Shown piece after piece: positions 1,572-43,424 of a stretch of DNA of 64,000 bases; within the stretch, counting starts at the first letter, position 1, and the number at the start of each line of letters is the position of its first letter. The translations under genes were made by a program, and so were the position numbers. Below the pieces are notes generated by a model. That model worked only from the letters and a program-made list of their open reading frames with translations. It was not told where the DNA came from and did no database searches. The stretch is from NCBI GenBank assembly GCA_905331295.1, contig CAJNYD010000503.1, forward strand, positions 1 through 64,000, in the 5' to 3' direction. The DNA is from Rotaria socialis. Taxonomy: Eukaryota.

Positions 1572-1770
1572 AAAAATTCACCTGTGCTATCCCTCAGGCT
1601 TCGGTCAAAAATGAATTTCATCTAAAACTAGTTTAGATGATTGTAATTAACGGCGAAGCTCAAGAAATCTACTTTAAACATGAAATGATGAGTATTCGAA
1701 TTATGAAAGAAAGATTTTGAGAAAACTCATTTTTGGTCAGAGCCTGAGGGGTAGCACAGGTGAATTTTTT
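1572..1770. mobile_element. MITE-like inverted-repeat element whose right arm ends at a telomere-like tract
   Basis: aaaaattcacctgtgctatccctcaggct (1572-1600) is nearly the reverse complement of agcctgaggggtagcacaggtgaattttt (1741-1769); weaker pairing continues inward. Confidence 0.6.
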
Positions 1771-1826
1771 GGGTGTGGGTGTGATTTATTTCTATGGATA
1801 CGCATCCACACCCACACGCCACACCC
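1771..1826. repeat. Inverted telomere-like junction (TGTGGG)n-spacer-(CCCACA)n
   Basis: gggtgtgggtgtg...catccacacccacacgccacaccc. Confidence 0.85.
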
Positions 1827-1906
1827 AACTTTATTTTTTATTTTTTATTGTTATTTTTATTATTGAGAATAACGAACCAAGAGAATAAAGACGTTTAACA
1901 AAAGAA

Positions 1907-1965
1907 GGGTGTGGCTGTGGGTGTAGGTGAAGATATAATTCTACTGTTCACCCACACCCACACCC
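1907..1965. repeat. Inverted telomere-like junction
   Basis: gggtgtggctgtgggtgtaggtgaa...ttcacccacacccacaccc. Confidence 0.9.
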
Positions 1966-2115
1966 AATTACAAGGAATAACAAAAGTTGATAATAATTAA
2001 TCACATTAAAATTATTTAAAAGGTAATAAAAAAAATTCACATATCGGATGATTTACTATTATTTTTATGCAGAATCATGAGGTACTTTTCACATGAAATA
2101 AAGCCGTTGAATTTG

Positions 2116-5100
2116 TCAAAATCTGTCCGATGTAATTGATGATTTTATTTCATTACTTTTTTGTTCCACTTTCCACTGTTGAATTTCTACTAATGGTCGA
2201 GCACAATTATCTCTTTTGTCAGCTACTGGAAATTTTAAATTTGTTAATTTTTGTAATCTTAAAATTCGTACTGCTTCGAACATTTCTTTATTTTTACAAA
2301 TTTCAATAGTTGAGTATGAATGTAAATCACTTAAAATTGCCTGTAATTTAAATAGTTGTTTTGCTTTATTTGTGCAACCACACCAAGGAAAAGAACTCCA
2401 GAATTTGCTATCAATATATTCATGTAATGATTGAATTAATAAATACAACCAATTATTCTTGTCTGTACTATGTTTATTTGCCGTATTACTTTCTTTTTTA
2501 ATTACACTAGCGATTTCATTCATTAATTGATCTGTTGACTGAAATTCGACACTTTCTCGATCGTATTCACGCTCAATAATCGACATAACAAGACCAACTA
2601 GAATTTGATTGAAATTATAGCTATTTGAATAATTTGTGAATATACAATTCGCTAATTCGCATTTTTCACTGATTATCAAATGAGATTTTTCGAATCCTCG
2701 GTAAAATAAAATGGCACATAACAATCTACCGAATTGTGAAGTCAAATATATTTTTGTTTGGACAGTCCTTTGACTTTGAGCTTCATTATATACTTCATCA
2801 ACTACAATCTTACAGTCGTGAGAATGTAGTACAATTTCATCGTGTTGTTCTGTATTTACTTCATCCTGTAATATGAAAGGTACATGAGATTTGGTTAACC
2901 GAGGATCATCACAAGTGACCATAATTACTCGATTACCGATTTGAGAATCTAAAGTAGATTTATATACATATTTATTACCATAAACAACATTCATAAAATG
3001 TGTGGAATCTTCATTTATTGTATTGTCATATACTACTTGATATAAAAATCTATGATCTTCTTGTTTTTCATAATTTGTTCTAATTTTATTAGCTTTCGCA
3101 TTCAATTCCATGGTATGTGGCCTTCTAAATCCAATGCCCGACCAACGATGATTAGTCGCTTCAGATTTAGTTTGTTGCTTTTCATCAATAAATTGTAAAT
3201 TATCGTAATCGAATAAAGTGAAATCCAATTCATCCGGGTGTCCACTACCGATACAAATAAAACCAGCTTTATTAGAGGACTTCATATGTTGTAAAAATAA
3301 ATCAGATTTAATTTTACGAAATGTTGATTCAGGATTTGAATAAATAAAGATTATTAAATCTGCTGTATTCAACCATTTTATTTCTGGATGATGAAATGCA
3401 CCATATCGTTTGATATCCCATATTTGATTTGAATAGTTAAATAACTTAAATAGATTCTGATATGCAAGAAACTCCGCTCGCTTAAATTTAGAATTTGTAA
3501 CAAGAAGTACATCAGTATGAATATTTGGTGTAAATATTGGTACAACTTCAGTGGTATTTCTACGTTTTTCAATTTGTGTGTCACGTAACAGTAAATCAAT
3601 ATCCCAAAATAAACTTTTATAGTAATGATTAACACTTTTGTCGTGTAAAGTAATTTTAAATTTAATAAGTTCTGTTGACTTAGGTGAGATTTCTTTATTA
3701 ATTTTATAATAAGTTCGTCCATCAGGCATTATTTGGTAACCATATTTTTCATTCATGGGCAAAAATTTAATTAAAGAATGAGTGGAGAATATAAATTCTA
3801 CTGGACCAGCTGAATCTTGACATACACCATACGATCGTGTAGAAATATTAGCAAATTTTACTGTCACAACGGCTTGCTCATTTGGCGCTAGGTGAGTTGG
3901 AATTTCAATATTTTCTATTTGAATTGGATATTGACAGGTTAACATAGTTGAAACTTCACTACCGTTGAATGAACGATTTAGTAGATTAATTTGTGATGTT
4001 ATTTTTACGGATTGAATGAACGGTTGATTAATTGAAAGAGCCGATGTAGCATTGATATGACATTTAAATCGATGAGAATCGAGTAAAACTTGATTAATAT
4101 TAGCACCTGTCAATACACTAACATCTTTTATATCAGTGGAAATATATTCTGTAGATGGAAATGATAATAAAGATCCACTAGGTAAGGTCATTGCTCCGTT
4201 ATTTGCCCATTTAACATCTGTAATATGAAAATCTGAGTCGGGCTCGTAGATTCCATCATTGTTTTGGTCAGTAATAGTATAACAAATGACACTAGCATGA
4301 TATTTATCAGAACTAGTTTCAATTATGTTACCATCTATATCGATCACAGCGTATTGAATTGAGCCATCCATTGCAGCACGACCATTACGACCATTGGAAC
4401 CACTTATACCTGATGAACCACTACTACCACAGGATCCAGATCTACCATTAGAGCCATTCATACCGCTGCGACCATCTGGTCCACCACTACCGCCAGATCC
4501 ACCGGAACCGCCAGCTCCACCGGAACCGCGAGAACCAAATTGGCCACCGCTGCCACCTTGACCACCTTCACCTTTTGTGCCTGCCCGGCAATCCAACTCA
4601 ATTAACATGAATAATCGAGAATCTCTACTGCGAACTTGAACATGACCACCGGCGCCTGCATTTCCTCCATTCCCACCGGATCCACCGTTACCGCCGTTAC
4701 CTCCATCCCCTCCGTTACCTCCAGGTCCACCATCACTTCCGTCGGCACCATTAATACCTTCCATCCAAGTACTGGATCCACATGGGCCATTATAACCATG
4801 ACCACCAGATCCTCCATCCCCTCCTCTTCCTCCGTTACCTCCTCGCCCTCCATCTCCTCCGTTGCCACCTACAGCCTTCACAAGAATGATCCCCTTCGAT
4901 TTAGCCAATCGAAAATCATAATTGACATCGTCATGCAGTTGAGCGAAATTCCAGTCAATATCAGTGGAATCCTTCGATGGATTATTTGAGTTATGAAATG
5001 TTGCCAGTTGCAAGTTCAAGTTTTCAATCGTTCCTTTTAACCAAATCAGTGCATGTTGAGCATCCGTACCAGATTGACCTGAATGACCATCAAACCCATT

Positions 5101-5337
5101 ACTACCATTACCGCCTGTACTACCACAACCACTCGTCGCATCACGGTACCCAATAATCCCAGGTGAACCACTAGTACCAGGAATCCCAGATGAACCACTA
5201 GTACCAGAACAACCATCTGAGCCTGACTTGCCGCTAATAGAAATTACATGATCCACAGGTTTCACTAAAGATCTTGTACTAACGTTATAAACATCGAAAG
5301 GAAAAATTGGTAATTCAACCTCTGTTACTATACTCAT
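2116..5337 (-). CDS. Intronless 1073-aa protein with an N-terminal Gly-rich (GGNGGDGG, collagen/PGRS-like) region and uncharacterised globular C-terminal domains
   Basis: Long uninterrupted ORF from ATG; G-x-x-G repeats over roughly aa 35-325. Confidence 0.85.
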
Positions 5338-5704
5338 TATACTACGTTGATTAAAATGAAGAAAATCGTGTGTTATTTGACTGTTATCGAATAGAGAATA
5401 TATCTTCAGCTACTGCTATGTGTCTTGTAAAAAACAAATCAGTCTTCTTATCATTATGAATGAATACATGTGAATCAAGTGGCCACGTTAATTTTTCGTT
5501 TTTATGCTCATACGTCATTCTACATGCGCCTGTTTTTTATCTTGCCTATTATCATCGATAAGAACTTAAAAGGGTCTCATCATAAATAAAATAAAATGTT
5601 TTATGAAATTCACTCTTTTCGAGGAAACTGATTTCGCTCTCTGAAAAAAGAAGTACTATTTTCGGGAATTTGCTCGCTTTCTGAAGAATTTTACGATAGA
5701 TATA

Positions 5705-6007
5705 CAGTATAACCTCTCTATAGTGGACACCCAAGGGCCCTTTTCAAAGTGTCCACTTTTGGGAGGTTTTTTTGGTTTTTTTTTACTTCGAAGTCATTTT
5801 TTAGTTACCAAAGTGTATGATCGACAGTCTCTTTATCAATGACACTTTGCAAAGAAGTGCGTGTTCAAGATAGTTTCTATCATAATTTATTAAAAACTAA
5901 TTAAACTTCGTCATTTTTTTTCGAAATAGTCAGTAATACAACTTTCTTAGGGCACTGTCCAGTCAAGATAAACGTCAGTCACCTTCGACTCGATTTCGCT
6001 GATGAGT
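5705..6007 (+). mobile_element. Left end of a pogo/Tc1-like DNA element, truncated
   Basis: ta|cagtataacctctctatagtggacac followed by a subterminal palindrome (gtggacac...gtgtccac); no matching right end seen before the junction at 6008. Confidence 0.45.
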
Positions 6008-6058
6008 ACGGGTGTGGATGTGGCTGAGGTTGAAGCGATTATCAACACTCACACCCGT
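6008..6058. repeat. Inverted telomere-like junction
   Basis: acgggtgtggatgtgg...actcacacccgt. Confidence 0.8.
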
Positions 6059-6672
6059 TAATTCTCTAAGAATTAGAATTTCTTTTTGGAATTATGCATG
6101 AAAAACAATCAGCAATAATTCTGTATCCTACTGGCAAAGTGTACTCAGGATATTGAACATTTTTTCGATATTTTGTCAAGTTATGCGTCTGTACAACAGA
6201 TATGGTTGACTCCTGTGGGTCTGGACCATTAGGACTAGGATCAGAAAATTGTTCAATATATTTAATCGATAACCAATGAATTTTAAAAAATTGAGTGCAC
6301 GAAAATTGGTAACTTCACATAGTTCAAAAGATGGAATGTTCTAACTCAGTTTGCTTTTATGCTCAACTATAAACAGATTTCATAGATTAAGTTTGAATAT
6401 AATGACAGAAGAAATTTTTATAGAGAGTAAGCCACCCATAGAAACAAAACACTAAAAATTTACAATAAAATAATGTTGAAAACAAATAAAAGCTCGAATT
6501 CATGGATTGGAATGAACAATTTTTTGAATTTCTTTGTATGATTTCAGTGAAAAGTATCTATGCCTGTTCTTACATTACATTTTCTACTTAAAAGACTTCA
6601 ATTGAAAATCTACATTCGATAATTTTTCTCAAATAACAAAAACTGTAAATTCGCAAAACAAAATCTAAATAC

Positions 6673-7355
6673 CAAGAAGAAACAGCAACCAGTTGATCAT
6701 TTGTACTAAATTCACAATATGATAAAGGACGATTATCACTCAATTAACTGCAATGTAATGTTGTGGTCTAGAAAAGATAATTAGAAAAAAAATAGACGAA
6801 CAAGAAAAATTTACTCGTAAATTCACGATATAAACCTTGAATGTTAGCTGTTCGATATACTTCAGGTATAGCAACATATTCTTTTAATTTTTCAATACGT
6901 TCTTTTGCTCTAGAATATAATTTAAAATAATATTTCTATGCAAATATAGATCTTTTACCTTGACAAGGAATATTCTGCAATCCAATATCGTACTGTTTGT
7001 AATTCATCAGGACCGTCATGATACCAAGCTACTCTGTTAAAAAAATTAAAAACAAAAAAGCCAATAAAAAATTTAAATAAATTATTTTTTTGCTTTTATT
7101 TGTCTTGTATCTTCAACTTTTTCATTGTCTTCTTCATTTTTACGTAATATCTTTGGAATTTCATTATCAGATAAAGATGATATTAGGTTTTGAAGACGTT
7201 TACGTCGTTCGGCTGGACGTTCTCCAAATAAACCTAAATGAAACCAAGAAATAATAACATTACTGTAAAAACCGTATCAATTTTTTCTTGCAGATAGGTT
7301 GTTCTAGTTGACGTAACGTTGCTTGGATTTTAATATTATCAGTTGTGGCGTTCAT
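6673..7355 (-). pseudogene. PRPF4: U4/U6 snRNP protein Prp4 N-terminal fragment (5 exons) with an in-frame stop; WD40 repeats lost
   Basis: Spliced translation LRQLEQPI/CLFGERPAERRKRLQNL...AWYHDGPDELQTVRYWIAEYSLSRAKERIE...LHCS*LSDNRPLSYCEFS matches the Prp4 N-terminus; TAA at 6744-6746 falls at the conserved Gln. Confidence 0.85.
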
Positions 7356-7544
7356 TTTTCGATGCTTGTCACTATAAAACATAGTTTTATTACAAAAAAT
7401 AATCTAATAGAGAAAAACAGAAACAGCAACTGACTGTAACAAAAAAACGAATAACGTAGGTCGCAAACAGACTAGGCAATTTATATTGATACGTGCTGCG
7501 TAAGCCAGTCGGAGATCGTGTCGATAATATACGCTAACGACGAG

Positions 7545-7738
7545 TAGGGGAGTCACATTTTAATTTTAATTTAAAATAAATGCAATTTTTTTAATGAAAA
7601 GTTAAAGCTAGTCACTCTTCTACGAATTGTGCTATTAAATATATATTTATGGGTATCCCGATATTTTGAAGAAGAAAGATGGCCGATCCTGCATAATTTG
7701 TAGAGAAATTTTGATTATTATGAACAAATGTTAACCTT
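7545..7738 (+). mobile_element. Truncated copy of the hAT MITE at 44047-44631
   Basis: Starts taggggagtca; 7608-7738 aligns with about 44252-44380; breaks off at the G-rich tract at 7739. Confidence 0.75.
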
Positions 7739-7790
7739 GGGGGTGGGATGTGTGTGTGTAAATGAAGAGAAGATCGATACCCACACACTC
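7739..7790. repeat. Inverted telomere-like junction (degenerate)
   Basis: gggggtgggatgtgtgtgtg...acccacacactc. Confidence 0.65.
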
Positions 7791-9284
7791 AACTAACGAG
7801 AGAACCTTTCTAGATCATAAAATCCTTTTGAAATAGGACACTTCATTAGATAGCTCCTATCAAGGCCAGACAAAGTCTAGAATGATTCATGCTCACGATA
7901 GTCATTTTATTGGTTAAGATAATCTACACATAACACAATATTGTGCGCAACTTATCCCAGAGCATGCGAGTCAATGGAATTGCATTTCTTTCTTTATTCT
8001 TATCTCTTCAGAAATTCTTTTACTTTGACGTATATTGAAAAAATGTTCATAACCACATATATGTTAGTTGAAGTACAATATATTTTTTTAAATATCAAAT
8101 TTCCCCCATGAAAATATAGTAAATGCTGAAGTTAAACTCATGCAGATATATTATTTTCAATCTATATTATAGATTGAAAATAATAAAACTACTAAAAATA
8201 AATAAATCTGTCTTTCAAATCGAATTAATATTCCTTGATTTGCATTCATTTCTAGAGAAATCTGTGTACTCTCAAAGAAAATTTCTTTCTTACTCAAGTT
8301 TTGGATTATTTTTCGGTGATACAATGAATTTTTCTGACTGACTCATTCCTTGTTTCAATTTGGATTTTATCTTGCAAATAAATTTAAAGAAAAATTTCCA
8401 GGCAAGATGGTTAAGTATTAGTTGGCTAAGAAGCTAATTTTCAAAATACAGAAGCAACAAAATCAATTATCTCATCGTGTAACTACGTGATATAAAATGC
8501 TTGTTGTATAAGTTTGTTCCAAGAAAATTTCATAGAAAAAATAATTTACACTTACGTTAGTGATATATACAAAACTCAAGTCCTTATTAAAAATCTCCTG
8601 ATAGTCATTAATCTGTTGGGTTTGAAGATTTAGAACTTTTAGTTACGAATCTTCTGGAAATATCCACGGATAAAAAACGAAACTTTTTCTGATGATGCAA
8701 AGTGAGGTTTTCAATACATCTAGTAGCTATTTAGCAAATGTATATCACTAGCATCATTTTTTTCTAACCAGAGAACATAACCAAGTGTCGAATAGAACTA
8801 AGAAAATCTTAAAAGGCTTTTGGTCAAGAATATCAATACTTTCAGTGCCGAGATAAAATATATATTTCAAAAGATGCAAGTGTTAACTTAATAGTAGTAC
8901 GTAATAAAATTGTTGCTTATATCCAATGATCAATTTGTCCTAGTAGCACGTCTAAATAAAACTCAAGGAATTTAATCTTATCTGACTTTAAGAAACCTTC
9001 TAGACGACAATGTAAGGATGCAGTATTCCTTATAGGATTCATTTAAAAGAATCTATGGATATTTCTAGAAATGATTTATGTCTTTAAGCAATCATAAATG
9101 CTGTATGAATATCTTAATTACAGAAATTATAATAGGAAAATATCTTTAATAGATTATTGTTTTCGTTCGACACAGAATAATAATAAAAATACCAAAAAGT
9201 TGCCTGTTAGTAAATTTAGTAAAATCGATATATTATTTCGATAACTGTTTATAAATTACATTGAGAAAAATAATACGAATTTTT

Positions 9285-9900
9285 TTAACTTTTGAAAACC
9301 CGCACGACACTCGTGATGGGACATCGGCATATAGGACAGTCAGATAATTGTTTACCACAACGAATACACGTACATAGATGACCACAATTAAGAACGACAC
9401 AATCAATATTTGCATCCAAACAAACTTTGCATAGATTTTCGTTGGGGTCTTCTTTAGAGACTTAAATAACAAAATCAACCACAAATGATGTAGAAAAAAA
9501 CAAAAATTATTTTACTTTTTGCATTTGATTCTTTTTTTTGTTTTTCATCACGATAAAGTAATTTAACTTTACTAGTTAATTCTGATTTTTCAACACATCC
9601 AGCAATCGATACATAACTATGTACAAGAATTTGTTGTAATTGTTGAGTTGTTAAGTCATCTATTGATTCTAATGTTGATATATCATTGAGAGTCATGCAA
9701 GCATAATTTAATTTTGGTGAAGCATCTTCAATTGGAGCTATCGGTTCTGAATGTTCACTTACACATGATGAGTTGATATTTGACGATGGTGTCTAAAAGC
9801 AAATCGTAAAAGAAACTAAATAAAAGGATAAGACATGAATCATTCATATCAAAATTTTACGGACTGAACAATCATCATACTATTGTTGAGATACATCTTG
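9285..9900 (-). pseudogene. RNF34: 3' fragment of an RNF34/RFFL (CARP-family) RING E3 ligase; N-terminal FYVE-like part missing
   Basis: Exon 9518-9792 has LTTQQLQQIL...GCVEKSELTSKV; last exon has C3HC4 RING LCKVCLDANIDCVVLNCGHLCTCIRCGKQLSDCPICR...VRVFKS*; upstream exon is cut at 9900. Confidence 0.75.
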
Positions 9901-9972
9901 AGGGTGTGGGTGCGAGGGTAGAAGTCATTTCATAACACTCTCACTCCACGTCCACGTCCACGCCCACACCCT
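9901..9972. repeat. Inverted telomere-like junction
   Basis: (cttg)agggtgtgggtgcgaggg...ccacgtccacgtccacgcccacaccct. Confidence 0.9.
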
Positions 9973-10453
9973 ATCTTTCTGTAAATCAAGACTTGCAGAA
10001 CAATACGTCTAGTTCCAGAATGGCTTCATCAAATGCAATGAAAGTCTCATAATATATAGCCAGAGTAAGTCGACCCCTGACTCATAAAGTATTTCTATTG
10101 CATAGTTATGAGTTTTGCAATAGTGACAGCCAGCATGTATTATTAGTGTTCTGTGGCTAATTCAATAGAGGCGAGAGTTTTGTTTCTGACCTATACTGAG
10201 CGAAAGCTATGCAACCTACATGTTTTTAGAGTCATACCTATTAGGGAAGCTGAAATCCGAGCAGCAGTGGCAGAATTCTGCTGTTCAATAGAACGCCATA
10301 AACTATTCATTGATGTTGCTATTCCTTTTTCTCAGCTTCAATTTTTCTCGTATTTCTACCAAATTTATTCTGCACAGATTCTTGGAACAGGTTTCTAAAA
10401 TTATTCGTGCTACCATGCACTGCAAAAAATTTCTCCGCTAAAAGTCTCACTTT

Positions 10454-10512
10454 CCCAGTCAGACAAGTTTTGAAAAAAAAACGGTGTTTTTTTCAACGCT
10501 TGTCTGACTGGG
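10454..10512. repeat. Short hairpin (mini-MITE-like)
   Basis: cccagtcagacaag...cttgtctgactggg, a perfect 14-bp outer inverted repeat with internal A/T arms. Confidence 0.7.
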
Positions 10513-13500
10513 TTAGGAGTAAGCTCAGCATGGTTTTAAAATTATGAGAGATGGTTGCTTAAATTTTTTCTCGCTCACTAGTTGTTTTACTTTTTCTACT
10601 TCCTACAATTTTCATCAGCATCCATTGTCGCGTTGAGAAGATAGGTTTTTGAGGGAGGAGGACCGGGTTTCCCGTTAATTTACATAAAATAGATCTCGTT
10701 TTCCCTAAACTCAGTTCAATTTGAAACTTTTGAACATTCGGTCGGTTAGGTTAGCAAAAATGCCAACCGATCCCATCTCTGTTCCCCACCAGTCGTATAC
10801 TTCACTAGTTATATATTGTTGCAAAGAGATTTCTGTCTTTTTGGAAAATGATATTGCCCCAAATTCAAATTCCTCAACATATGTACTTATAAACTATCGC
10901 ATGATTGCCAGTATTTATCATTAAGATTTTAGATAAAATGAAAGATTTCTACATTCTATTTATTCTTACGTTGGATAATGTTGATTTATTTGAAACATTA
11001 CTCGAACGTTTTGCTCGCCTAAATCGTTCCAAATTATAACGTGCAAAATATAATTTATAACATTCAAAACCTTTTTTGATATAAAATATAGAAAAAGAAA
11101 CAAATAATATATTCTAAACATTTGATTTGTAATTGGTACCTTTAGGTGATAAATTTGTTAGATCAAGTTTTGATACACGTTTTTCAAATAAAGCTAATTG
11201 TGAGTCTCGATTAAAATCTTCTACACATGTTATAAACCAATTTAAGCCAAGTTCACGACCAAATGAACTTGCATTTTCATTTGTGATTAATGTATCCCAT
11301 AATTCTTCACTACGTTTTAATATTAAATAAAGATTTCCTTTTTTTAATAAAAATGATAATAAATCTAAATGAGTTTTAATTGATTCTTGATGTGTAAAAC
11401 GCCCATCAACTAATGTATCAATCGTTACATGTCCATGTGTTTTATTCCAAACATCTAATTGACATGTTGATAAACTTCGAATTAATGCTGATATAACATC
11501 ATGCTTATGAACTAATAGTGATATTAAATCTGGTTCTGAACGTTTAAATGTATTTGTTGGATTATGAAGTAATAATTCATATAAATGTTTTAACGCTGAT
11601 ACAAGCCAACCTTGATTACGTTGTAAATCAGTCATACATTTAAGACAATAATCACGTTTAAGTTCATCATAAGATGAGCGACCCTCACTAAATACACGCA
11701 AATGACAATATAGAAGATGATCAAGCATTGAACGATGAAGTCGATCTTCATGTGCCATATCCCAAAGCACTTCTAAAACACGAGCAGCAGAATCTTCTTG
11801 ACATCCTCGACCGATAGCACCAAGTAATTCAATAAGCTTTTCTTTTATAGGAATGGTTTCAGTTTTCCATGACTGTATAAATAATATTCAATTATATATG
11901 TGGGCAACAACAAAAATTATTTATATTACGTTATCAATGAAACCAATTAGACAGTTGAGTTGTTCTAGATTAAATTTCGTTGCGGCAGATGCAATCAGAC
12001 TCAATAAATGATCCACTGTGGCTAATGATCGACCATGCTGAAAAAAACCCAAACACTAAATACGCTGTTCTTGCTGCGTACTCAAAAGAAAAAGAGTACA
12101 CTATAGAATCGGCCAGTGTGTCCGCCCGTCCGGCCGTTTACACGATAACTCTTCACAATTACATTCGATTGAGCTGAAATTTTGTGCACAGAATTGTCTC
12201 ATCAATATCTAGGTCGAGTTCGAAGATGAGAAGAATCCGTCAAGAAATGACTGAGTTATCGAAAAAATTGCCATTTTTGATCAGACCATCCTTGAGGGGG
12301 AGTACAGGGATTTATCAAAAAAACTTTTTTTTTCCAGAATTATCCACAACATATATAAATCGACTCAGTTTTTAACGCTGATTCTGAATCTGATATTAGT
12401 TTTGAACTAAATCGTAGCTTTCTAACGAAACATCGCCTGAAAAGCGTCTCAAAATGCACAAAAACTGCATCCAGAAATCAAGCTGCCTAGTTTCTCATGA
12501 TAATTTTGGCGTTCAGACATTCTAGAATGACTCATATGTCCCATGCACTTTTTGCAGTACACATAACTCTCGGATGAAATCTGAAGTTTTCACATTTATT
12601 TATTTTAAAGTCTAGTAGAATCGGTAGACTCGAAAAAAGTTATCCATTGAAATTATGAACAGCTGAATTAATTTGTAGCTTAGTTTCTTTTCTTGATTAC
12701 GTTGTAACTCATTCGCATCACCCGGTGAGTCACAAGAGTATTGTCGTGTGTTCTATCGAGTTTTTGATCAATTTCTTCACGATCCCTTTATTTGATCTCC
12801 TTCAAAATATTAATTAAAACTTACTTAATATATTATAACGAGACAATATTTCTATACGATCATACATCAATAGCATATCTTCTGACTTAAATGAATAATT
12901 CGTTGCTAATTTGCCAACTAAGTGTGATTTGGAGGAGGTCAGAAATTCTACATTTATACTTTAACAGTTATTTTAGATTGCGTTTCACAAATGAAAGATT
13001 GCGATTCAACAGGAAAAATAAATTTTCAGTATGTACAAATCTGATACGAATATAAAAAGGGAACAACATTAGAAGTTATTTTACTGTTGACACCTAGAAT
13101 CTGATCAGAAAACTATATATATCGTACTTTCGATAAGCCATTTAACCCATTGAGTAGGAGCTAGCCTACAGTGATAGCATAAATCAGCCGAATCAAAGCA
13201 CGATTTAGGATTTAAATAATGTAAAATATTTATTATCCGTTCGAACTCTGAGAAGACTCTTATAACGTTTGGGCAAAATTATTTTCTCATCAACATCAAA
13301 CTTTTAACAGAGTATAATGTTTGTGCAAAGTGTCTATTGCTCAAGAGACCTTTTTTTATATGCAGACTTGCAAAAGTTGCAAGATAGAGCAGATTAATTG
13401 AAGTGAAAACTGTGACACTGGTATTCTTAAAGAATTTCGTTATTCATTAGTCTCAATAAATATCAGTTTTCATTTTAAGTGATAATTTTTCTCGGAATAT

Positions 13501-14089
13501 ATCAAGAAGGAAACGACGTACTCTCGCATTATTGGAGTCCAGAAAGTACAAGAGGCACACGAAGTTTAATATAAAACGTGTTTAACTCAATTAAAAATGG
13601 CATATTCTCATATTTTCTGGATAGCTGTAGCTCCTGAACTCCGACAGCACATTGGGAATGCGAAGATACATCGTTCCGATTTGTACTCTCTGTAGCGCAG
13701 ATCATGCTCACATATGTTGCATTCGGTAAGAATTCGATTCCCTTTAGTTTAATGCTTGGAGAGTATTATGACGTTAAACTCTAGTTGCCATTTGTAACGG
13801 TATTACGAGATCAATGGTCATATTTCGTATTAAGTAGTATTTACAATTTCTAAATTACCAATTCATCGTTCTTTAAACTAGTAAATAATTAAGTCTCTGC
13901 AAACCTTATTAAATTTAATTACATTCTTCTGGTAAAACTGGTAAAATTTAAAAAAGTTGTTAGCGCAATCCCTTTGGGATTAAAAGTGTGAAACACGATG
14001 AAACTTCTTTTCTGGAATTCGTCCATTACTATCACTGGTGGTCTGTGGAGCTTCTCTATTACAGTCTGTATTATGATGTATGGAGTCTC

Positions 14090-14233
14090 TAGAAACCATC
14101 ACAGACCGTGACAGAGGGACTTCAGAAACCATCACAGACCGTGACAGAGACCTCAGAAACTATCGCAGACCGGGACAGAGAAATGAATTAATTAATCAGC
14201 TAACTAATTAATTAATTTCTCTGTCCCTGTCTG
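14090..14233. repeat. About 3 tandem ~31-33 bp units running into a hairpin next to the assembly gap
   Basis: agaaaccatcacagaccgtgacagag repeated; cagaccgggacagagaaat...atttctctgtccctgtctg inverted repeat. Confidence 0.7.
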
Positions 14234-14239
14234 TGGGGG

Positions 14240-14249
14240 NNNNNNNNNN
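14240..14249. other. Assembly gap (10 N) within a USP24 intron
   Basis: N run flanked by a G run and a C run. Confidence 0.95.
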
Positions 14250-16506
14250 CCCCCCCCAAGTTGCTACCCTATATACTTCAACACTCCTTTCAGATCGTGT
14301 TCCACAAAATATTACCGAACTAATAAGTAACTTGAACCTATAGCTACCTCAAATCTAATATAATGAGTGTGAGATTCGCATGTATTCTTTTCAGACATCA
14401 ATCATTTTTGTTTGCTTCTTTTGACTTGTCCTATTTTCTGCTGTCTAATTTCCAACAAAAGATAAGTAAATCTTCATTCATGCACGAGAGAAGAGTACAG
14501 ATTAAAAATCTTATTCAACTAACTTGTTGAATATTTCAAGGAGAAAAAGATATAAATAATATTGAAAAATATATACCTGCATTTTCCATATCATTTCAAT
14601 ATCTTCTTTTAACATGCTTGGTGCGATGAAATCCACGAATGTTCGAGCTTTTTCTACATATTGAATTTGATCAATATCTCCTATTCAAATAAAATAAAAG
14701 ATAAATAAAATAAAAATTTTATTTCTACCTTCTAATACTTTCGAGAGAATAGAATGTTCAATGATCCATTTACTAACAATATCACGTGGAATTGATGTAG
14801 GATTTTCAATTATTTTTGAAAGCTGCCAAAAAGAAACAATTAAAATAAATATTTCAATCATAAAATTTATTTTACTCCTTTTAATGAATTCATTTTAGCA
14901 TTAAAATCTGATAGATTAACCATTTTAAGTAATATATTTAAATGTAGTTCTTCCATTTGCGCAACGCGGTTTTCCCACACAACAGAAGATATTTTACGTA
15001 AAGTTGTAAGTAATTCAAATATTGAACTTGCTGACTAAACAGTTTACATAAAGATAATTTTATTCAGAGGAAGAAAGTAATAAAATCTAACAAACTTCTG
15101 TTTTATAATCTTCTTCTTTACAATTTTTAACGTAATTTAAAGCTTCTTCAACATGTTCACTAAATAATTGTTGATATTTGTCTATGAATAGATAATCCAT
15201 ACATTGAACAAAAGGTGAAAGCAATGCATTGTATTCCTATATTTATCAAATAATTAGCAAAGAAAATTTAGAAAGAAACGAGAGATTTGAATTCTTACAA
15301 GAGCTGTCAATGGTTTTTCACTTTTAAATTGTCTTTTTAAATTTTGTATTCCATCTTTTAAAACAAAACGGTTTATTATTTCACGCAACCAACCATATTG
15401 TTCATTTTCATTAGAATCAGAAAATGTTGACGATGATGACTTAGCCAATAAACGTTCACCCAATTGTTCATCATAATGTGAACCGTTATATGATCGGTTT
15501 TTATTTTTTTGTTGAAAAACTGAATCATGATCAAAGAGTATAGCTAAAGTTTCAAGTAATTGTGTTGGTACTGGAGAGTAAGCAAGACGAGCAGCTATCA
15601 GATCAACTAATAATTGCATCATATCAAAGATACCTAATTGAACCATAGTTGACCAAGTATTAACAGGATCAGAGCATTGTAACTAAAATATCACACTATA
15701 TAAACCAATAAAAAACAAAATCGATTTTTCATACTTTTTGAAAAGCAGCTGGAATTAATATTTCCATAAATTTTTTGCAATGCTCATCTTGATCAGCGAT
15801 TCCTAAAATTTTAAAATTACAAAAAAATTAACTAACTATTAGTTTAACCATCAACTGCAAGTCTCGTAGCAGATAAAAGGCAACGACCAAGGTTTTCTTC
15901 ACCTAAATATGCGCAAACGAAACATTTAGTCGTAAGAACATTTATTCGTATTAAATTTACGTTTAATAGGAATCGACCATTTGTCTCGATAGACGCTGTT
16001 CTCAAGATCCAGAAAAGCACTTGTTGTAAATGAAGCCGAAGTTTCCATCGGTAATTCATTCGACGATGTATTGGAAGTTTTGTCTAAGGTGATCTTTAGA
16101 GAGAAAAGAAAAGCGGTTTAAATTAAAATCGAATTCTTAATTTTACGTTTTGTTGTTGTTCTATTTGGTCTTCAGTAAGTGAACCAGTAAATATTGATGT
16201 TGGTCTTTGCTCGTTGAAAGTAACAAAGTCGTCATTAAAAAAGATTGGCCCCGTCAGAAAAGTAATAGCTTCAACAATATCATTTTCAGCTTGAGTTAAA
16301 GCCTGGCGATTTAATTCTCGATCGATAAAACCCATATTTTCTAAAATTCCCATATTTTCTTCCATATTTGGTAAATTAGTTGCTGTTGATGATGCAGTTA
16401 ATAATATAATTATAAAAAGGAAACGTTCTAAAGAAATACAACCTGAATTTAATCTCTACCGAGCAACACAATTTTTACTATCTTTATCAATGTGAGAACC
16501 ATCCGA

Positions 16507-16550
16507 AGGGTGTAGGTATCAGAGAAAAATGGCCACCTACACTCATACAC
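16507..16550. repeat. Inverted telomere-like junction (degenerate)
   Basis: agggtgtaggt...acctacactcatacac. Confidence 0.65.
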
Positions 16551-17016
16551 AAGCTCACTGACACTTATCCACACGTCATCGAGTTCATAGGAAACTCGAA
16601 TTTGCCGCAAAATTATTTTCCAGAAAAAGAAGCATCTTAGCCACAAAATATAACTTACGAGATATAATCTGGCATGAGGCTGCATAAATCTTGATGCCAC
16701 TTATACCTCGCATAAATACTGTGGAGAAAATGATTTTGCTGCAAGTTCAAATTTGTCAAATTACGGCTTCACCCAGGTTAGCATTATTGTTACAATCACA
16801 ATCCCACAGACGTGATCCTCCTCGCAAAAATATAATACTGGAGAAAGCCAAAATAATGTCACTGTCTTCATTGGTTCTTATCAAAATGTAAGTTGAAAGG
16901 AAGTCAGAGAGCTTCGTTGGTGTGGGTCGAAAGGTTTTGTTTTTGCAGAACGCCAAGCACATTTTGCCTCAATGACTGTTCCTTATTCTGCAACGAGAGA
17001 TATTGTATTAGACGTC

Positions 17017-17064
17017 GGTGCGGGACTTCTCTTGTATTAGCCACATGTCCGCACCTACACCCTC
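17017..17064. repeat. Inverted telomere-like junction (degenerate)
   Basis: ggtgcggga...ccgcacctacaccctc. Confidence 0.55.
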
Positions 17065-17912
17065 AAAGCAAGGGAAGAACTCGAATTTAGTGAACTTGCT
17101 AATACAATTTCTATGCAGAATATTAGATATTTTTTATCATACGCGACGCTGAGATTTATAAAGAAGATAAAAATGAATAACTGTGAAAAATGCAATGGAA
17201 CTACGATTCTCTAGCATTATGCACAATTTCTTTTGAATTCTACACGGAAAACTTCTCTGTTATAAACAACTAAGTTTCAGTTTACTACTATAGTAGAGCA
17301 GAACAAGATGCAAAAAGAAAACAAAAGATATGTCTCATTTAAATAATAACTCTATTTTATAGCCGACAGACTTCAACAGCTTGGCTTTTGTTGCATCAGA
17401 GAAAACAATGTTTTCTGCGGAAGTACAGAAATGCATTTGCCAACTTGGAAAAAGAAATCAACAACAACACCTTTAGAACGCAAGAAAAAAACAGGGTATT
17501 ACGAAAGGAATGATGATAGAGAAAACAATCCTCTGATGAATAAAATCTGACTAAAGAAACGCAAAAAGTCATTGTTCTGTAGTGTTTTTCGTGTGTTATA
17601 TGACGCAGTAATTATGCAATTTCTGCACATAATGTGCAATAATCATTCAAGATTACGATGGAGGTGGGGTAGATGTCGGCATAGCTGCTGCTGAATGTTA
17701 ATCTCCCTTCAACTACAATTATATCAATGAATGAAAACAAAAATCATCAATAGTCTTTATGAAAGTGAAAACACATGGTTTCATTTAAACTATGTGAGAT
17801 CAACGTTTTAGAAATTTCACACTAACATTTTCTGGTTGGAGAATGAATGAGGTATTTTTCAGCTTAAAATTTGCTTCCAATTGATCTTCAGGATAGATTG
17901 AATAGTGTCGAA

Positions 17913-17969
17913 GTGGTGTGGGCCTGAAGTGAATATCTTGAGTTCTATCCACATCCACGCCCACACCAC
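17913..17969. repeat. Inverted telomere-like junction
   Basis: gtggtgtgggc...atccacatccacgcccacaccac (perfect 11-bp outer inverted repeat). Confidence 0.85.
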
Positions 17970-18462
17970 CGACGTTCGATTGGACAATAACTGATGAAAG
18001 GAGAGTAGCATCGCTCTATAATTTATTTCTGTGGCTACACAGAAATTGATTGTACGTGAGATCAGAGAGGTTGTTACGATGCTTTTTAAAACGTGTTCTA
18101 AATTAACTTTCTGTAGTTGATCCAGAGTTGCATCCTTAATCGAGTGCACTGATCAAGTCATCGGTCTGAGAAAAACGAGTCCACATTTTCCCGCAAGTCA
18201 GTATTGTGACAGACAGCAGTGCAATAATACTTTCAGGTTGTACGAGACAAAAAATGCGTTCTAAATCGGATTTGTATGCCGAACTGAAATTAAGTTTCAA
18301 TCGATCATAGCTATTGGTGACCACATATAGATTTTTACAAACTAGACGAACCGAAAGAAGAATGTTTTGAACATTCAGATGATCGAATATGAGATGAAGA
18401 AGCTCGATCGGTAGTGTAAATTGAGATGCGTTACACATCGATGGATGGTTTTTTGCATGCAT
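17970..18462 (-). pseudogene. F-box(-LRR) gene fragment, frame-disrupted and cut off at the junction
   Basis: F-box FTLPIELLHLIFDHLNVQNILLSVRLVCKNLY; continuation split across ORFs 18136-18462 and 17859-18149, the latter running into the repeat tract. Confidence 0.7.
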
Positions 18463-18605
18463 AACTCAGTGGAGAACGAAAGAAAAAAAATCTTTATTTA
18501 CTAAATTGTCAGTATAAATTGGTGCATTCTCTTGATTGCGTAAGTACGCCAACAAGCTGTTATGACTCATACATAAACAATTTTAGACTTCTACGTCGAT
18601 TTGTT

Positions 18606-18663
18606 GAGGGTGTCTGTGTGCGTGTGGGAATTAGAAAAGAGTATCCATATCAACACCAACCCA
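18606..18663. repeat. Inverted telomere-like junction (degenerate)
   Basis: gagggtgtctgtgtgcgtgtggg...caacaccaacccaa. Confidence 0.6.
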
Positions 18664-19626
18664 ATCAATTGTCCTACTTTCTGATTGAATTCATTGGATC
18701 ATTTCTTCGAGAAAAATCGCGATGGTTTTTTTTAAATAGAATTGATAATTCGAAATTGTAATGTGTAAGGTTCCAATAGGCCAACTTGACTTAATTGATT
18801 TAATGCAGACGAATAAAAAGAAACTCTATTTACGATAATATAGAGATTCATACCTATGCAGATTTGCGTCTTATTTTATCGGCTGATGAACGCAGAAAAA
18901 ATCTTTCCGATTACTTGTTACCCTTTTTTCACAACAACATTTTAATTGTTTTCATGACTTTCTTTTCATCAGCATTAGTTTTGCATACGTTCTTAAAATT
19001 ACCGATGTTTCTCGCATTTTTTTCTTCAATCAAATACAGTTTTCGATTGATTATGATATGCGCTCCTATAGCGATACTTGTTTTAGAAAATATGAAATTT
19101 GATTTGTGAAAGTCAGATGCGAAGCAATGGAACAATAAAAATAGGATGATGATGATCCTGAAACGATTGCATTGAAGCTACGATGCATTGGAATAGATTC
19201 GTGTCACATTTCAAAGTCTGTTCAACAAACAATACAAAGTTGGTAGTTTTCGCTGAGAAAAATAAAGACACGCATGAGAGCTGATAACAATCTGAGAGTC
19301 AACTGTGATCATCAGAAATAGCTTACATCTCTGATTCAAACAACAGTTGAGAGATTAAGAGATCGTCATGTGGAGTGCGAGAGAAGAGCAGATTCTCATC
19401 CTCGTTGATAGTAGAATCAACTTCAGCTGGATCAACAGATATTTGCTACTAGGCAATACGATCGTTCTCTTCTCAATTCGAATGAGAAAGAAACAGCAGT
19501 TCATTTAAACAAAGCGGTCTAGGCCTGTTGTGTCAAGTGTTCATTGTTGATGATTGGTGGATACAAATGTCTGCACATATGAACTTTAAATAAGATGAGA
19601 AAATCGAATATTACTGAATCATAAAG

Positions 19627-20752
19627 ATGTTTAGCTTCTCCTTCGCACTTTTTCTTCGGCATGCTCCATCATCAGCTACCATATCCACTCTCGAACTCTT
19701 ACCGAACGAGATTTTGTTTGACATTCTCTCTTATCTCTCGGTCTCAGATCTTGCCTATGGTTGGTTAGATCTGAATAGTCGCTTTGACGCCATTGTGCAC
19801 AGCTGTCCTATTCGACACGTTTACAATGAACCAAAATGGTGAATGATCAACTGATGATTTTCTCAGAATTGAATAAAAACTTATATTTATTTTAGGCTAT
19901 GGCGACTGCTGCGGTGGTTTGCTTGGAGTTATCCTACTGATGTCGAACTTCTTCAATACTTTGCTTCTCAAGTTGTTTTTCTTGAAATTCATCAACATTT
20001 CACTTTATCCGATGTGAGCACAATTAATATTCTTCAGTACCCAAATCTTCGTCGATTGACTATTCGTCGAACTACTACATCTCAAGTGAATGCCATTCAA
20101 GCAAACAATTTTCCTTATCTGGAATATCTTACTCTTTCTGCAACGGAAAATATCAGCTTCAATATTCTCTGTCAGTTCAAATTACTTCGTTCGTGTGGCT
20201 TAGGATCAATTCAAATCGACGATCAAGATATTTGTTCGTCGTCATCGATTCGATCGTTGATTCTTCAAAAATGCGATCCGTCGCAATTGCTTCATTTACT
20301 GCATCATCTTCCTCAGCTGATTTATTTCAAAGTGGCTTTTTTGGACTCGGCATTCCGTTCAACCATTCGATTTTACAACTGATTTTGTCCATCAGAATCT
20401 GAGATCATTACATATTTCCATGTTCAATGATGATTTTTCGGGAGAAGCGATTGATACCGATCGATGTGCCGTTGTTACCACATTATTCGCTAGTTTATCA
20501 CTTGACCAACGTATTCGGTGTCATTTACAGCTGTTTGGCATGTCCAACTTCAATTTTGAGCAACTTCAACGGGCTCTACGCAGATTAAATTCGTGTCGCT
20601 TGTCATGTTTTCTCATCTATCACCTTCGATGGCATTCATTGCCAGATATCGATCATATTCGACAATTGTCATTATTCAATAAAATTCGACCAAGTCCTTG
20701 TAATGCTAACAACCTTCATACATACCGCTTAACATGGACGAATGTTCATTAA
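19627..20752 (+). CDS. F-box/LRR-like protein; one intron (~19839-19895) and an apparent +1 frameshift near 20370
   Basis: LELLPNEILFDILSYLSVSDLAYGWLDLNSRFDAIV; LRR-like YPNLRRLTI, FPYLEYLTL; frame changes at cgattttacaact. Confidence 0.7.
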
Positions 20753-20821
20753 AATTTTTAAAATAAAATCGATGGCGGTGACTGAATTCACACATTTGAC
20801 GTCATACAAGAGTTACGTGGC

Positions 20822-20866
20822 GGGGTGTGGGTGTGAGTGCGAATGGCCCCTTTGAAACCCACTCCC
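20822..20866. repeat. Inverted telomere-like junction
   Basis: ggggtgtgggtgtgagtg...acccactccc, 70 nt after the F-box stop. Confidence 0.8.
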
Positions 20867-21326
20867 TGTCACAGCGTTACGTTTGGACAAGCCGATATAT
20901 AGAGTATTATCTTGTTCAAAGTCTATACTGTAAGGTAAACTATTATGAAGAAATGTAACCCAATAGGCATAAAACAACAACTTTTAGAACATTGTCTATA
21001 GCAGCTACATCGTGTTTCACATTTTTAATTTAGCAAGGGATTGCGCTAACAGCTTTTGATGTATACTGGTTGCTCTTGAATTTCTCCTGTGAATAAGTAA
21101 ATAATGTTATCGGTTTGAGTTGGTAATATAAAAACTACGATAAGTTACCAGAACTCTATTGCATCTCCATTGATTAGGTGACTTGAGTGTAAATGTGTGC
21201 AGGGTAAGTTGTTTTTCATATTGTGTACTTTGATTGAGCAAAAAGTTCTGTTATGACCTTATCGTATAATACTTGAACCCTTATCCTATCTTAATATGTA
21301 AAACTTCTATACCTACTTTTTCATAC

Positions 21327-21375
21327 GAGGGTGTGATTGTGGCTGTGGGTGATCAAACAAGGAAAACTCACACCC
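21327..21375. repeat. Inverted telomere-like junction
   Basis: gagggtgtgattgtggctgtgggtg...ctcacaccc. Confidence 0.8.
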
Positions 21376-22000
21376 AAATACTTGCATCCAATGTTGAATT
21401 TATCTCTGAAAGAATTGTTATCGGTTGTAAATGTTCGTAGTCAAAGATGAATTGTTCAAGGTAGAGATAAAACTCATTTTGTTTCTGAAATATGTACAAA
21501 TAAACAACTGATTACTCTGATGAATTTTCACTTATATAGATACATTCGTTTGTGAACATGGACTCATCAAATGTTAATGTGAGTTCATCTAATTGATGTT
21601 CAATAAGATAAAATAATTTTCGAACTACTGGTTCAATTGATTCACATCAAATAAGAATAAGAAATTTAAGATTTGGAAAATTAAGAATATTATGATTAAA
21701 TAATCATTCATAAATAAGATCAGAAACAATTGAATTTGTTTCATCAAAACGAATACGTTGAATAGGAAAAAGAAAGAGATGGTGATTTCAAAATTAATAA
21801 AAATAAAGTCGAACATTTATTACAAGGTAAATCTGACGTGATTCGAAGACCAGTGTTCAGTCGATTATGATTTATAGAAATGATTGAACTCACAAGAGAA
21901 TTGAAACGACTATGTAATGATCAAAAAGACGTTAACATATCAAACCATGATAGATAAGAAAGAATATAATGAAGAATTTCATTTTGTAATGTTTCTATAC
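21376..22000 (-). pseudogene. Decayed F-box/LRR-family fragment
   Basis: Stop-riddled ...ILNFPNLKFLILI*CESIEPVVRKLFYLIEHQLDELTLTFD; upstream LHSRFNSLVSS resembles an F-box tail. Confidence 0.45.
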
Positions 22001-22045
22001 TAGTTCTGGGAATCATTTTATCTAAAGAAGAAAGTTATTTTATGC

Positions 22046-22086
22046 TGAGGGTGTGGGTGTTGTACAGATTCAACCCCACACCCTCA
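22046..22086. repeat. Inverted telomere-like junction (cleanest copy)
   Basis: tgagggtgtggg-tgttgtacagattcaac-cccacaccctca, a perfect 12-bp outer inverted repeat. Confidence 0.9.
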
Positions 22087-22109
22087 AGATATTGCTTTTC
22101 AGTCCGAGA

Positions 22110-22520
22110 TCAATACTTCGCGGCGATAGAAGATGGCTCATTTCTGCCGACGCCACCCGACGACGTTTTTATCCAACATGTAGACGAGCCAAAATTTAAA
22201 GTAAATGCTCTGCAGGAGGACGTGGCTAAACACCATGCACAACAGACACTAAATGTCATCGGTGATGCATTTACTAGTTCGTTGTTGGGATAGTCCCAAT
22301 TCGTGCTGACTGTAAAATTTGAACAAGTGTTTATAGCTAAAACACGAATTTACATCTTGACAGCACAAAAGAGAAGAGAAAAGGGGACGATTACCTGTCG
22401 TCGTTGTCGTTGTCGTCGTCGTCGTCGCTGTTGTTGTTGTTGTCGTGGCCGTTGTTGTTGTGGTAGTAACCGTTGTAACCGTAGTTGTCGTGGTAGTCGT
22501 CGATATATCTGTATAAACTT
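22110..22520 (-). CDS. 3' exons of a protein with a poly-Thr (mucin-like) stalk and a C-terminal PAN/Apple domain
   Basis: Exon ~22394-22520 is poly-Thr (ACN repeats); last exon reads NWDYPNNELVNASPMTFSVCCAWCLATSSCRAFTLNFGSSTCWIKTS...KY*. Confidence 0.7.
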
Positions 22521-22687
22521 AGCCATTTTTCTATTATTAAATATTCGTTTGCGCTTGTTCAATGACGCATGAAAACGCAGTTTGATATGAAGCAAATTGA
22601 CATGCGATTAAAAATATTTAGAAACGCTTTCGGATGCAGTTTTTCTATACAATGCGTTTAGCCGCAATCAGAAGGGAAAATTAACCT

Positions 22688-22725
22688 GGGTGTTGGTGTG
22701 TCTACAAATCAGTTCACCCACACCC
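22688..22725. repeat. Inverted telomere-like junction
   Basis: gggtgttggtgtg...cacccacaccc. Confidence 0.85.
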
Positions 22726-23059
22726 TAACTGTCCTCTGTCGTTTGGTATGTTGCATGAAAAGAGTCTCTGATTTCTAATAATCAAATTTTTATGAATATG
22801 TATGAAAAATCTATCCCTATTGTTGGTCACATTAGAATGACGGTAGTCCTAGTCAAATAGGACTAACTCCACTATAGAGAGCTCTATTGGGAAAAAAATT
22901 TGGATTTAGAGGTTCCAAACTTTGTGTTTTTGAATGTAAGCATAAATTTTGAAATAAAAATCTATCGAGTGCTTCGAATGCTTGATGCTCTCACAGACCC
23001 TTCCTTAAGCTTTTGATCTGAAGAGTGATCTGTAGGGAAAAAATTCTTTTGAGAGCATA

Positions 23060-23764
23060 AGGACCCTTCAACACTCATCAGTGTCAGAGTTGGTAATGAT
23101 GTTTGAAGATTTATTTGGTTTTCCATCAGATCCACACAATAACAGTAAAGACGATGCATTTTATGTTTTCTCTCTGCATCCTCAAGGTTTAAAAGCAATC
23201 TCATCATACCAGTCGTTGTAGTCACTGTTTGCTCGTTGAATTTAGAAACGATCACATATACACTAACAGTCATGACTGCAAAGGCACATGCTATAATTAT
23301 CGGCAGCATGAAAATGTGTATCCGGCATGGTTTCGCTTTAATCGTTGTAAGATCTTTTGCCAATCTCCTAAAATAGACAATATAATGTAAAGGTAGAAAA
23401 TTATATCTCAGAAATCCTTTGGCATGCTTAGTCAATATATAAATATAGACTTCTCTGCCAATTTTAACTCCCACTCTCCCACAATATCCTTAGTACAGAA
23501 GCCTTTTGGCACAGTTTCACTAACGTTTCAGGCGAAGATTGATGATTCATAGACGGTGTAAGTATTCGAGGTGAATGAACAAGCGAAGATAAAGGATGAT
23601 GCTTCTGCTGCTGATTTTCAACCTGTAGTTTGACCTAAACAAAAGATTTTATTTTCGAGTCGTTCTTCGGAAGATGATTGTGATGAACATTTTGATAATA
23701 TATCGATAGCTGTACATACCTGGGATATATGCTCAAATAGTGTGCTGTTTGGGGAATGAAGCAT
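23060..23764 (-). pseudogene. 5' exons of a type II membrane protein (TM helix followed by a Thr run), disrupted
   Basis: ATG 23764 with a GT donor at 23719; TM segment IFMLPIIIACAFAVMTVSVYVIV followed by TVTTTT and a GT donor; no clean downstream continuation. Confidence 0.4.
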
Positions 23765-24541
23765 GTGTACAAGTTAAAGAATATGTATTGAAAATATTCT
23801 GAGCTTTTACACTACTTGATAAACAAACAGATTCAATAATATTTGAGTTTTCTGCCTTCTTAGTTATTCTTCTTCGTCGTATGGCTATCGTGTGACCTGT
23901 CGAGAGACCTGGAGACCAAATCTATAACTTGTTGTGCACATTTCTGGTTTATATCATATAAATTTAGAAAACTTTCATTTTGTTTTTGTCAAATCAAAAA
24001 CTTACTTCTTATTTAGAAAAGAGAAAACATCATAAAGTAAATAAAGTTAATTTCATATCATATACATTGAAAACAATTTTTTTATTGAGTTAGTTTTATG
24101 TGACATTTATCATACTTTGACATATTTGTTTCCTATTTTACTTTTAAAATGATTGTTCTGTGAGACTCATTATTGTTCAAATAGTAGCATGAGCTAATCA
24201 ATATTAATTATTATGAGATTGAATCTTCGTGATTTATATCCTATTACTTATCGTTTTATTTTTAATAAGAAAATGAAAAAGAAATATTTATACAAACTAA
24301 TCCTATTTAAGGATATTTACAGCTGCTATTTGAAAAGAAAATATCCAATTAAATTCGATAAAAATTAAAACAGATCATTTGTTTTCTCTATCAATTATAT
24401 CGATTATATTTATTAATGAAAAATAAGCAGTACAAGATCAAAACAAAATAACAAGAAAAGGAAAATACAATAATAAGGAAACAAAAATCTGACCAGTTAA
24501 TTGTCCATGAGTTAAATGAATCACCTGTATTATTTTGTACA

Positions 24542-27954: not shown

Positions 27955-28520
27955 TAATCTTCTAATCGAGTAGTCGTGATTCGAAGTTTATCTATAACAA
28001 ACGAAAAAGTTTCCTATGATAGAAATATCAAAATTATTATGAATATCGATAAGAACTCGATTTATATATTTTTTTAGAAATAAAAACATCATTGTGTAAC
28101 ATATACCTTCGATGCAGAAAATACGAAAGAGGGCGCCCGATGATGGTTATAATATATAATCAATATTTTTTTATAGAATAGATCTGAAATCGAAGCTGGA
28201 ATATTATCATTTTAAAAATTCGTAGTATTATCTCGATTCTTTTTTTCGCAAAATACTCGAGATTTAATTGATTACATTATCCATCTATTTTATTATACTT
28301 GGAAAGTTTTTATTGGAGTATGATGTCAAGATGAAACGACAGATTAATTCCTAGATATTATCGAAATGAATACAAGAGAAGAAAGATTGTTTTTTCTATT
28401 TTAAACTTTGAGCGTGTCTTCAAATAGAACATATGTTTGCCTATTCGATTTTATAGTAACGAACAGAGAAAAACATTATACCTCAATTATATTAATCCAA
28501 AGTGGATTTAAAGTTAACTA

Positions 28521-43418: not shown

Positions 43419-43424
43419 TTCTCT

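Follow-up and report, generated by a model that had tools for sequence, protein, structure and literature searches.

A non-autonomous hAT-type element at position 7737 and a monocarboxylate transporter gene at position 39771 are both truncated at short scars of facing telomere-like repeats in a 64-kb stretch of Rotaria socialis DNA (the window, positions 1 to 64,000 of contig CAJNYD010000503.1). The arms of the scars keep a fixed order, the flanks on their two sides are unrelated, and the junction beside the element is present in several samples. This pair of intact-versus-cut controls, element and transporter, is one new contribution of the window. We read a scar as the joint of two broken ends from different places, each of which would have received an RNA-templated cap before cap-to-cap joining, and put the probability of this reading at about 0.68.

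The scar beside the element is a 54-base facing pair of telomere-like repeats in the order (TGTGGG)n, 20-base purine-rich core and (CCCACA)n (Table 1). The motif at this junction is a pair of facing bdelloid telomere repeats around a short core, TGTGGG being named as the bdelloid telomere repeat in the accessible text of two papers (PMC7943196, PMC8494291). The first bases of the G-rich arm are absent from the element consensus and were therefore added; at 7738, the bases added after the element's own CT agree with the outer motif ATCTTGAGGG. A near copy of the core is found at a second locus of the same organism, where contigs have 7756-7790 in common with the window but carry other flanks, and similar cores occur in three metagenome loci (L067, L058 and L011). 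Proteins of the window match R. socialis at up to 100%, and eight runs from two studies contain 83-88% of the sampled words of 1000-10900. The junction at 7739 is bridged by one contig, with at least 38 bases on the left, in all six runs compared from two studies; one run could be the source of the window itself. The piece to the right of the scar corresponds mostly to one contig per run at 88% likeness. Thirteen letters in 8627-8740 differ between the window and all of four runs, reflecting another haplotype or an assembly switch.

Table 1. Features of the window discussed in the text (coordinates are positions in the 64-kb window).
Feature	Position	Strand	Details
Cut hAT-type non-autonomous element	7545..7737	+	5′ TIR 7545-7567, internal deletion, 140-bp body
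G-rich arm, degenerate (TGTGGG)n	7738..7758	+	
Purine-rich core	7759..7778	+	20 bases, carries the AAGAGAAGA motif
C-rich arm, degenerate (CCCACA)n, facing the G arm	7779..7791	+	
Unrelated piece right of the scar	7792..9284	.	3′ flank of the USP24-RNF34 hybrid gene
Hybrid gene USP24-RNF34	9285..16365	-	14 exons, 916 codons, no stop, 13 GT-AG introns
Orphan 68-nt GT..AG unit and 38-nt exon-like remnant into the scar	9793..9898	-	GT..AG unit 9860-9793
Scar in the joining intron of the hybrid gene	9899..9971	+	
Scar abutting inverted-repeat element	1770..1827	+	element 1572-1769
Scar ending one-TIR element	6010..6056	+	element 5705-6008
Monocarboxylate transporter copy	38027..39771	+	cut at residue 443 of 550, one premature stop
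Scar cutting the transporter gene	39768..39819	+	
Full-length control copy of the element, 585 bp	44047..44631	+	TIRs, 8-bp TSD 44039-44046 and 44632-44639
Other scars (within 1907..53654)	starts 1907, 16508, 17014, 17915, 18605, 20823, 21329		
Other scars (within 1907..53654), further	starts 22046, 22687, 41725, 46904, 47258, 53589		
Weaker scars	near 635, 16916, 51025-51085, 58031		

The cut element can be judged against a complete copy in the same window. With its 585 bp, terminal inverted repeats perfect over 11 bp and the 8-bp target duplication ATGCGCAC on both sides, the complete copy belongs to the hAT-type non-autonomous (MITE-like) elements by the rules of the family, namely TAGGG.. 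terminal repeats and an 8-bp TSD. Such elements are short, AT-rich and multi-copy, as is the case here: the element body is matched by 15-33 contigs per run, and the full copy holds no ORF of 120 aa. The transposon itself is ordinary and serves only as a control. The truncated copy agrees with it at the 5′ end (21/25 over 7543-7567) and in the body, where 125 of 140 aligned positions are identical (7598-7737 versus 44242-44381), and also has an internal deletion of approx. 140 bp, but lacks the 3′ 250 bp and the 3′ TIR. This missing segment (44382-44631) aligns with 7739-9900 no better than 30 shuffles do on either strand, and no match to it was found elsewhere in the window outside the full copy. 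In four of four runs, contigs of other family copies part from the window at 7737 and carry the sequence of the full copy onwards (6, 4, 3 and 9 such contigs in runs X1, X2, X3 and X8). Thus, the homology to the TSD-flanked element which the original prediction had placed at 7545-7738 is borne out with its end at 7737; it stops at the junction both in the alignment and by the family contigs that read on, and a resumption beyond 7790, named beforehand as the finding that would speak for an inserted motif, was looked for by alignment and did not appear.

The second control is coding. The transporter copy follows a 550-residue R. socialis protein (P0001) almost letter for letter up to residue 443, and the scar arm at 39768 starts on the gene's own TTTGG. 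Residues 444-550 are absent from the window.

Two further elements had been predicted to end at junctions. The one at 5705-6008 has a single TIR with no partner before the scar and no full-length control copy; truncation at the scar is compatible with its structure. The element at 1572-1769 does abut a scar, yet both of its inverted arms are present (58 bp, 83%) and its truncation is unsupported. The wider proposal that the junctions mark breakpoints in non-coding DNA too is upheld by the lack of resumed homology, the read-through copies, the lack of flush target duplications and the uncorrelated GC content described below.

Periodic alignment of the whole window yielded 16 pairs in the order G-then-C and none in the order C-then-G, with none at all in four shuffles. 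At a lower threshold there were 18 facing pairs in the 64 kb, again none in reverse. G-then-C is the order left by two capped ends meeting, and the polarity thus argues for such a joint. Arms are 8-37 bases long and the cores are mostly unalike. Between 21 candidate junctions lie pieces of 80 to 17043 bases with a median of approx. 1.8 kb; one stretch of 17 kb (22726-39767) is free of scars. At 51015-51085, two scars stand directly against each other: the core and C arm of one lead straight into a degenerate outer motif and the G arm of the next, and hardly any piece separates them. Variant hexamers recur in adjacent units at 9935-9971, 41725-41745 and 17949-17967 (GGACGT twice in 9947-9959). 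They look like an error that was copied on, which is unlike plain telomerase; later slippage could also produce them. In R. magnacalcarata, gene model P0044 begins with residues matching DNA past the scar at 16508-16551 (window 16508-16551 and 16630-16713), and the joint at 16508 seems to predate the split between R. magnacalcarata and R. socialis. A stop-free frame of 174 codons (46773-47297) passes through the scar at 46904 and enters a 296-bp TPR-like piece, which the following scar cuts in turn. A search with the open frame 46773-47294 gave no homologs at E 0.001.

The window also holds an intron-free carboxylesterase gene (56017-57939, 640 codons) and an intron-free gene for a DUF7932 protein with a Gly-rich stretch (2116-5409, 1097 codons), whose lack of introns suggests a possible foreign or retroposed origin. 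An F-box-like gene piece with stops lies between two scars (21377-22045, minus strand), and a sphingomyelin phosphodiesterase gene has decayed (47600-50150, minus strand). Foldback or TIR elements that look complete were seen at 28519-29368, 35391-36234, 45191-45362 and 53811-54801.

For comparison, at least 119 loci with facing repeats were collected in a metagenome scan. Loci with a GC content up to 0.43 were kept (52 loci), 13 perfect hairpins or repeats of one family were dropped before counting, and 44 scars from 42 low-GC loci among those listed were counted. Their bdelloid origin is mostly assumed; four of the 42 loci have a repeat or gene in common with the window away from the scar. 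Contigs L067, L073 and L020 carry four, two and two scars of the same polarity in 5.6, 3.1 and 1.2 kb, respectively.

Both the edges and the cores of the scars contain recurrent motifs. The outer motif ATCTTGAGGG is complete at 3 of 36 arm edges in the window and at 9 of 88 in the listed metagenome loci. Arms often begin with only a part of it, and conservation is graded outward: preceding GAGGG, the leading letters A, T, C, T and T are present in 23, 21, 17, 22 and 31 of 38 edges. The rows of alignment A1 were picked by hand. At 47258, CTTGAG looks native as it lies in the reading frame of the cut TPR-like piece, and both this edge and the one at 7738 are as expected if a few bases matching a longer template served for priming. 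The cores have a purine skew (p 0.03 in the window; 0 of 1000 random sets for the metagenome), and AAGAGAAGA, allowing one mismatch, occurs in 2 of the 18 cores from the window and in 11 of the 44 from metagenome loci, compared with means of 0.2 and 0.9 for random segments. As the remaining 16 window cores are without AAGAGAAGA (GAAGAC is found in 0 of 18), read-through would explain only some cores, and other filler is present as well. The fidelity of the repeats falls from arm edge to centre, which is partly a product of arm anchoring and was given no weight. Taken together, the recurrent outer motif ATCTTGAGGG and the core motif AAGAGAAGA point to an RNA template, by analogy with the vertebrate TERC-ITS.

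On the favoured reading, a double-strand break would cut the element and its 3′ end would prime on 2-6 matching bases of a template reading ATCTTGAGGGTGTGGGTG as DNA, from which the variable start of each arm within ATCTTGAGGGTGTGGGTG would follow. Two to five repeats would be added. At one of the ends, synthesis would pass beyond the repeat template into adjacent pyrimidine-rich RNA and thereby produce the purine-rich core before both capped ends are ligated. Repeated rounds would leave a chain of pieces like that in the window, with its median of approx. 1.8 kb. As the enzyme, telomerase with its own RNA is somewhat favoured over the reverse transcriptase of Athena/Terminon elements; neither a template RNA nor a polymerase turned up in the material analysed.

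A different history would be the insertion of a tiny mobile hairpin with telomere-like terminal repeats, followed by deletion or recombination that joined unrelated flanks. The outer motif is symmetric at both ends, one core is common to two loci without the flanks, and five of six tested scars fold as hairpins (z -2.3 to -4.7), all as such an element would have it, but the scar at 7739 folds no better than its shuffles (z -0.6). Pairing is also stronger between the two arms of one scar than between arms of different scars (36.7 versus 28.7 in the metagenome; 20.2 versus 18.9 in the window, p 0.06), a result that fits fold-back as well as a mobile hairpin and is biased by the search pattern. 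At two of the three ATCTTGAGGG scars (9899 and 46904), ATCTT(G) recurs on the far side, and these direct repeats fit a simple insertion at one break. Flush target duplications are nevertheless no more frequent than expected by chance, both in 18 scars of the window and in 21 from metagenome loci. With 6-base slack and a local null, short direct repeats are slightly in excess at window scars (3.39 versus 2.79, p 0.0125), in one of eight tests and with no such excess in metagenome loci. A regular TSD had at first appeared against permuted pairs (3.39 versus 2.60) and faded with the local null and less slack. The constant flush TSD and conserved interior expected of a TIR mini-transposon are thus not seen in scars with arms of such variable length and mostly unalike cores. 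Moreover, arm starts overlap native bases, and both cases with an intact control are cuts rather than insertions. GC content speaks in the same sense: its rank correlation across scars is -0.26 to -0.74 compared with +0.36 to +0.50 for randomly chosen positions (all 8 settings, p up to 0.014). The mean absolute difference in GC content between the two sides of a scar does not reach significance (p 0.06-0.26). On this evidence, a mobile hairpin is quite improbable.

The reverse transcriptase of Athena/Terminon elements might instead build the junction in one step, priming on one end, copying the C-rich tail of a retroelement RNA and jumping to the G-rich 3′ end of another capped piece, so that the scars would be by-products of terminal retrotransposition. 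According to the accessible text of the Athena report, these elements carry tails of (ACACCC)n or (TCACCC)n, and host genes are taken up between their units (PMC6431247); both hexamer variants are present in the arms. In addition, one survey is reported to have failed to find TERT in A. vaga (PMC5405514). On the other hand, apart from one tRNA, neither a hammerhead nor any other Rfam match was obtained at the gathering threshold in the window or in 19 loci, a search which divergent hammerheads could escape, and no RT domain was present in 18 window frames scanned with Pfam. The pieces are found in either orientation, with introns and intergenic DNA retained, and the Terminon chains described run head to tail. 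We regard this route as unlikely while keeping it in consideration. An artefact of whole-genome amplification or assembly is largely refuted and hardly credible. A gap of 10 N in the window and the 13 differing sites in 8627-8740 speak for it, but the same junction is bridged in every run compared from both studies, the scars are decayed, and flank remnants at two of them recur in R. magnacalcarata gene models. Amplification primers as the source of the scars are ruled out by the G-then-C polarity, given the make-up of these primers.

Capping and joining of broken ends may also bear on the neighbouring gene. What is new here is that a scar lies in the intron joining the USP24-like and RNF34-like halves of an open 916-codon gene. 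Its front comprises a UBA domain and a USP24/USP9X-type ARM half matching residues 130-767 of the 2579 of human USP9X, the rest of which is missing, and its back comprises an HeH domain and the RING half of RNF34/RFFL type. Along protein P0038, the similarity to USP9X gives out at residue 746, and the coding sequence is interrupted by an intron after residue 766. The match to an RNF34 relative begins with the first codon past this intron, which extends from 10969 to 9793 and contains the scar. The orphan GT..AG unit next to the scar has, with 68 bases, the intron size usual here, and together with the exon-like remnant it is likely a leftover of the cut RNF34 gene. The remnant is predicted as the N-terminus of three R. 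magnacalcarata proteins (P0015, P0023 and P0026); it gave no significant alignment with intact RNF34 relatives. Protein predictions for R. magnacalcarata, R. sordida and R. sp. Silwood2 contain this fusion too, with 76-92% identity in both halves. In an Atlas search, the whole hybrid gave only scores under 0.8, and the RNF34 half led to RFFL/RNF34 clusters at 0.95; no relatives of this half were found in viral contigs. The event at 9899-9971 would have joined the front to the back, and splicing across the scar would yield the open hybrid gene. Judged from gene structure, the hybrid was probably born at this scar. We go no further because the chance of a scar falling in the fusion intron is approx. 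1 in 4 (1177 of about 4300 intron bases), the remnant is unaligned and a direct repeat flanks the scar.

It has long been asked how gene fragments and foreign DNA come to be taken up at the chromosome ends of bdelloids. A broader reading, which we offer only tentatively and consider rather doubtful as a whole, is that RNA-templated capping and joining is a routine form of end ligation in bdelloids that shuffles DNA on the kb scale and makes new genes such as USP24-RNF34, and that the scar consensus spells the template of telomerase RNA with its flanks. As a part of this tentative whole, the hybrid would have exchanged the catalytic part of a deubiquitinase for a RING ligase, and four Rotaria species would have retained it. 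With scars that can be counted and intact donors that are known, genomes can be read for where breaks fall, how priming works and how large the pieces are. The motifs provide a search string for the template RNA, i.e. CACACCCUCAAGAU preceded by a UCUUCUCUU-like pyrimidine-rich stretch. A conserved hybrid gene with a scar at its seam would mean that such repair creates genes, and in R. socialis, presumably a non-desiccating species, drying would not be the only source of breaks.

Neither the two-arm unit in bdelloids nor a gene fusion at it is described in the openly accessible literature searched. Gladyshev 2008 and 2010 reportedly mention telomere repeats in both orientations. As in Athena/Terminon chains, telomere repeats are placed at truncation points with host genes between units; unlike them, judging by the accessible parts of the reports (PMC6431247, PMC8557442), the window has facing arms; no hammerhead was found beside the C-rich stretches at the Rfam gathering threshold, and no RT in the 18 frames scanned. 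Interstitial repeats from telomere-telomere fusion have in common with the scars the head-to-head polarity (16 to 0 here), as far as the accessible text of PMC8537989 goes. They differ in that the arms of the scars are short (8-37 bases), are separated by a spacer and have no subtelomere behind them, and in that cut genes lie at the edges; instead of former chromosome ends with long tracts, arms start inside an element or exon.

The vertebrate TERC-ITS are closer. In the accessible text of PMC8537989, short telomere repeats are written into a double-strand break and adjacent template RNA is copied, types B and C representing template read-through, and head-to-head tracts are explained by capping of both ends. 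Short telomeric repeats likewise stand at the break sites in the window, in a cut element and a cut gene. The vertebrate set comprises 41 loci in 22 genomes, three of them head to head, defined against empty orthologous sites, whereas 18 scars in 64 kb are all head to head and join unrelated pieces, with the RNA represented by motifs only. Contiguous flanks of an insertion are not seen at 7739 or 39768, where the flanks are unrelated, nor by the GC test. Within bdelloids, the accessible parts of three papers (PMC13564844, PMC8494291, PMC2861651) describe neotelomeres and short interstitial (TGTGGG)n in subtelomeres, the same repeat in the same clade at breakpoints, including neotelomere repeats at deletion breakpoints in A. 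vaga (PMC13564844). Like the window, these subtelomeres are rich in TEs, pseudogenes and F-box, NHL and TPR genes. Their accessible accounts concern single caps or repeat density, and it is the window that adds the facing two-arm unit, the motifs at edge and core and the gene fusion.
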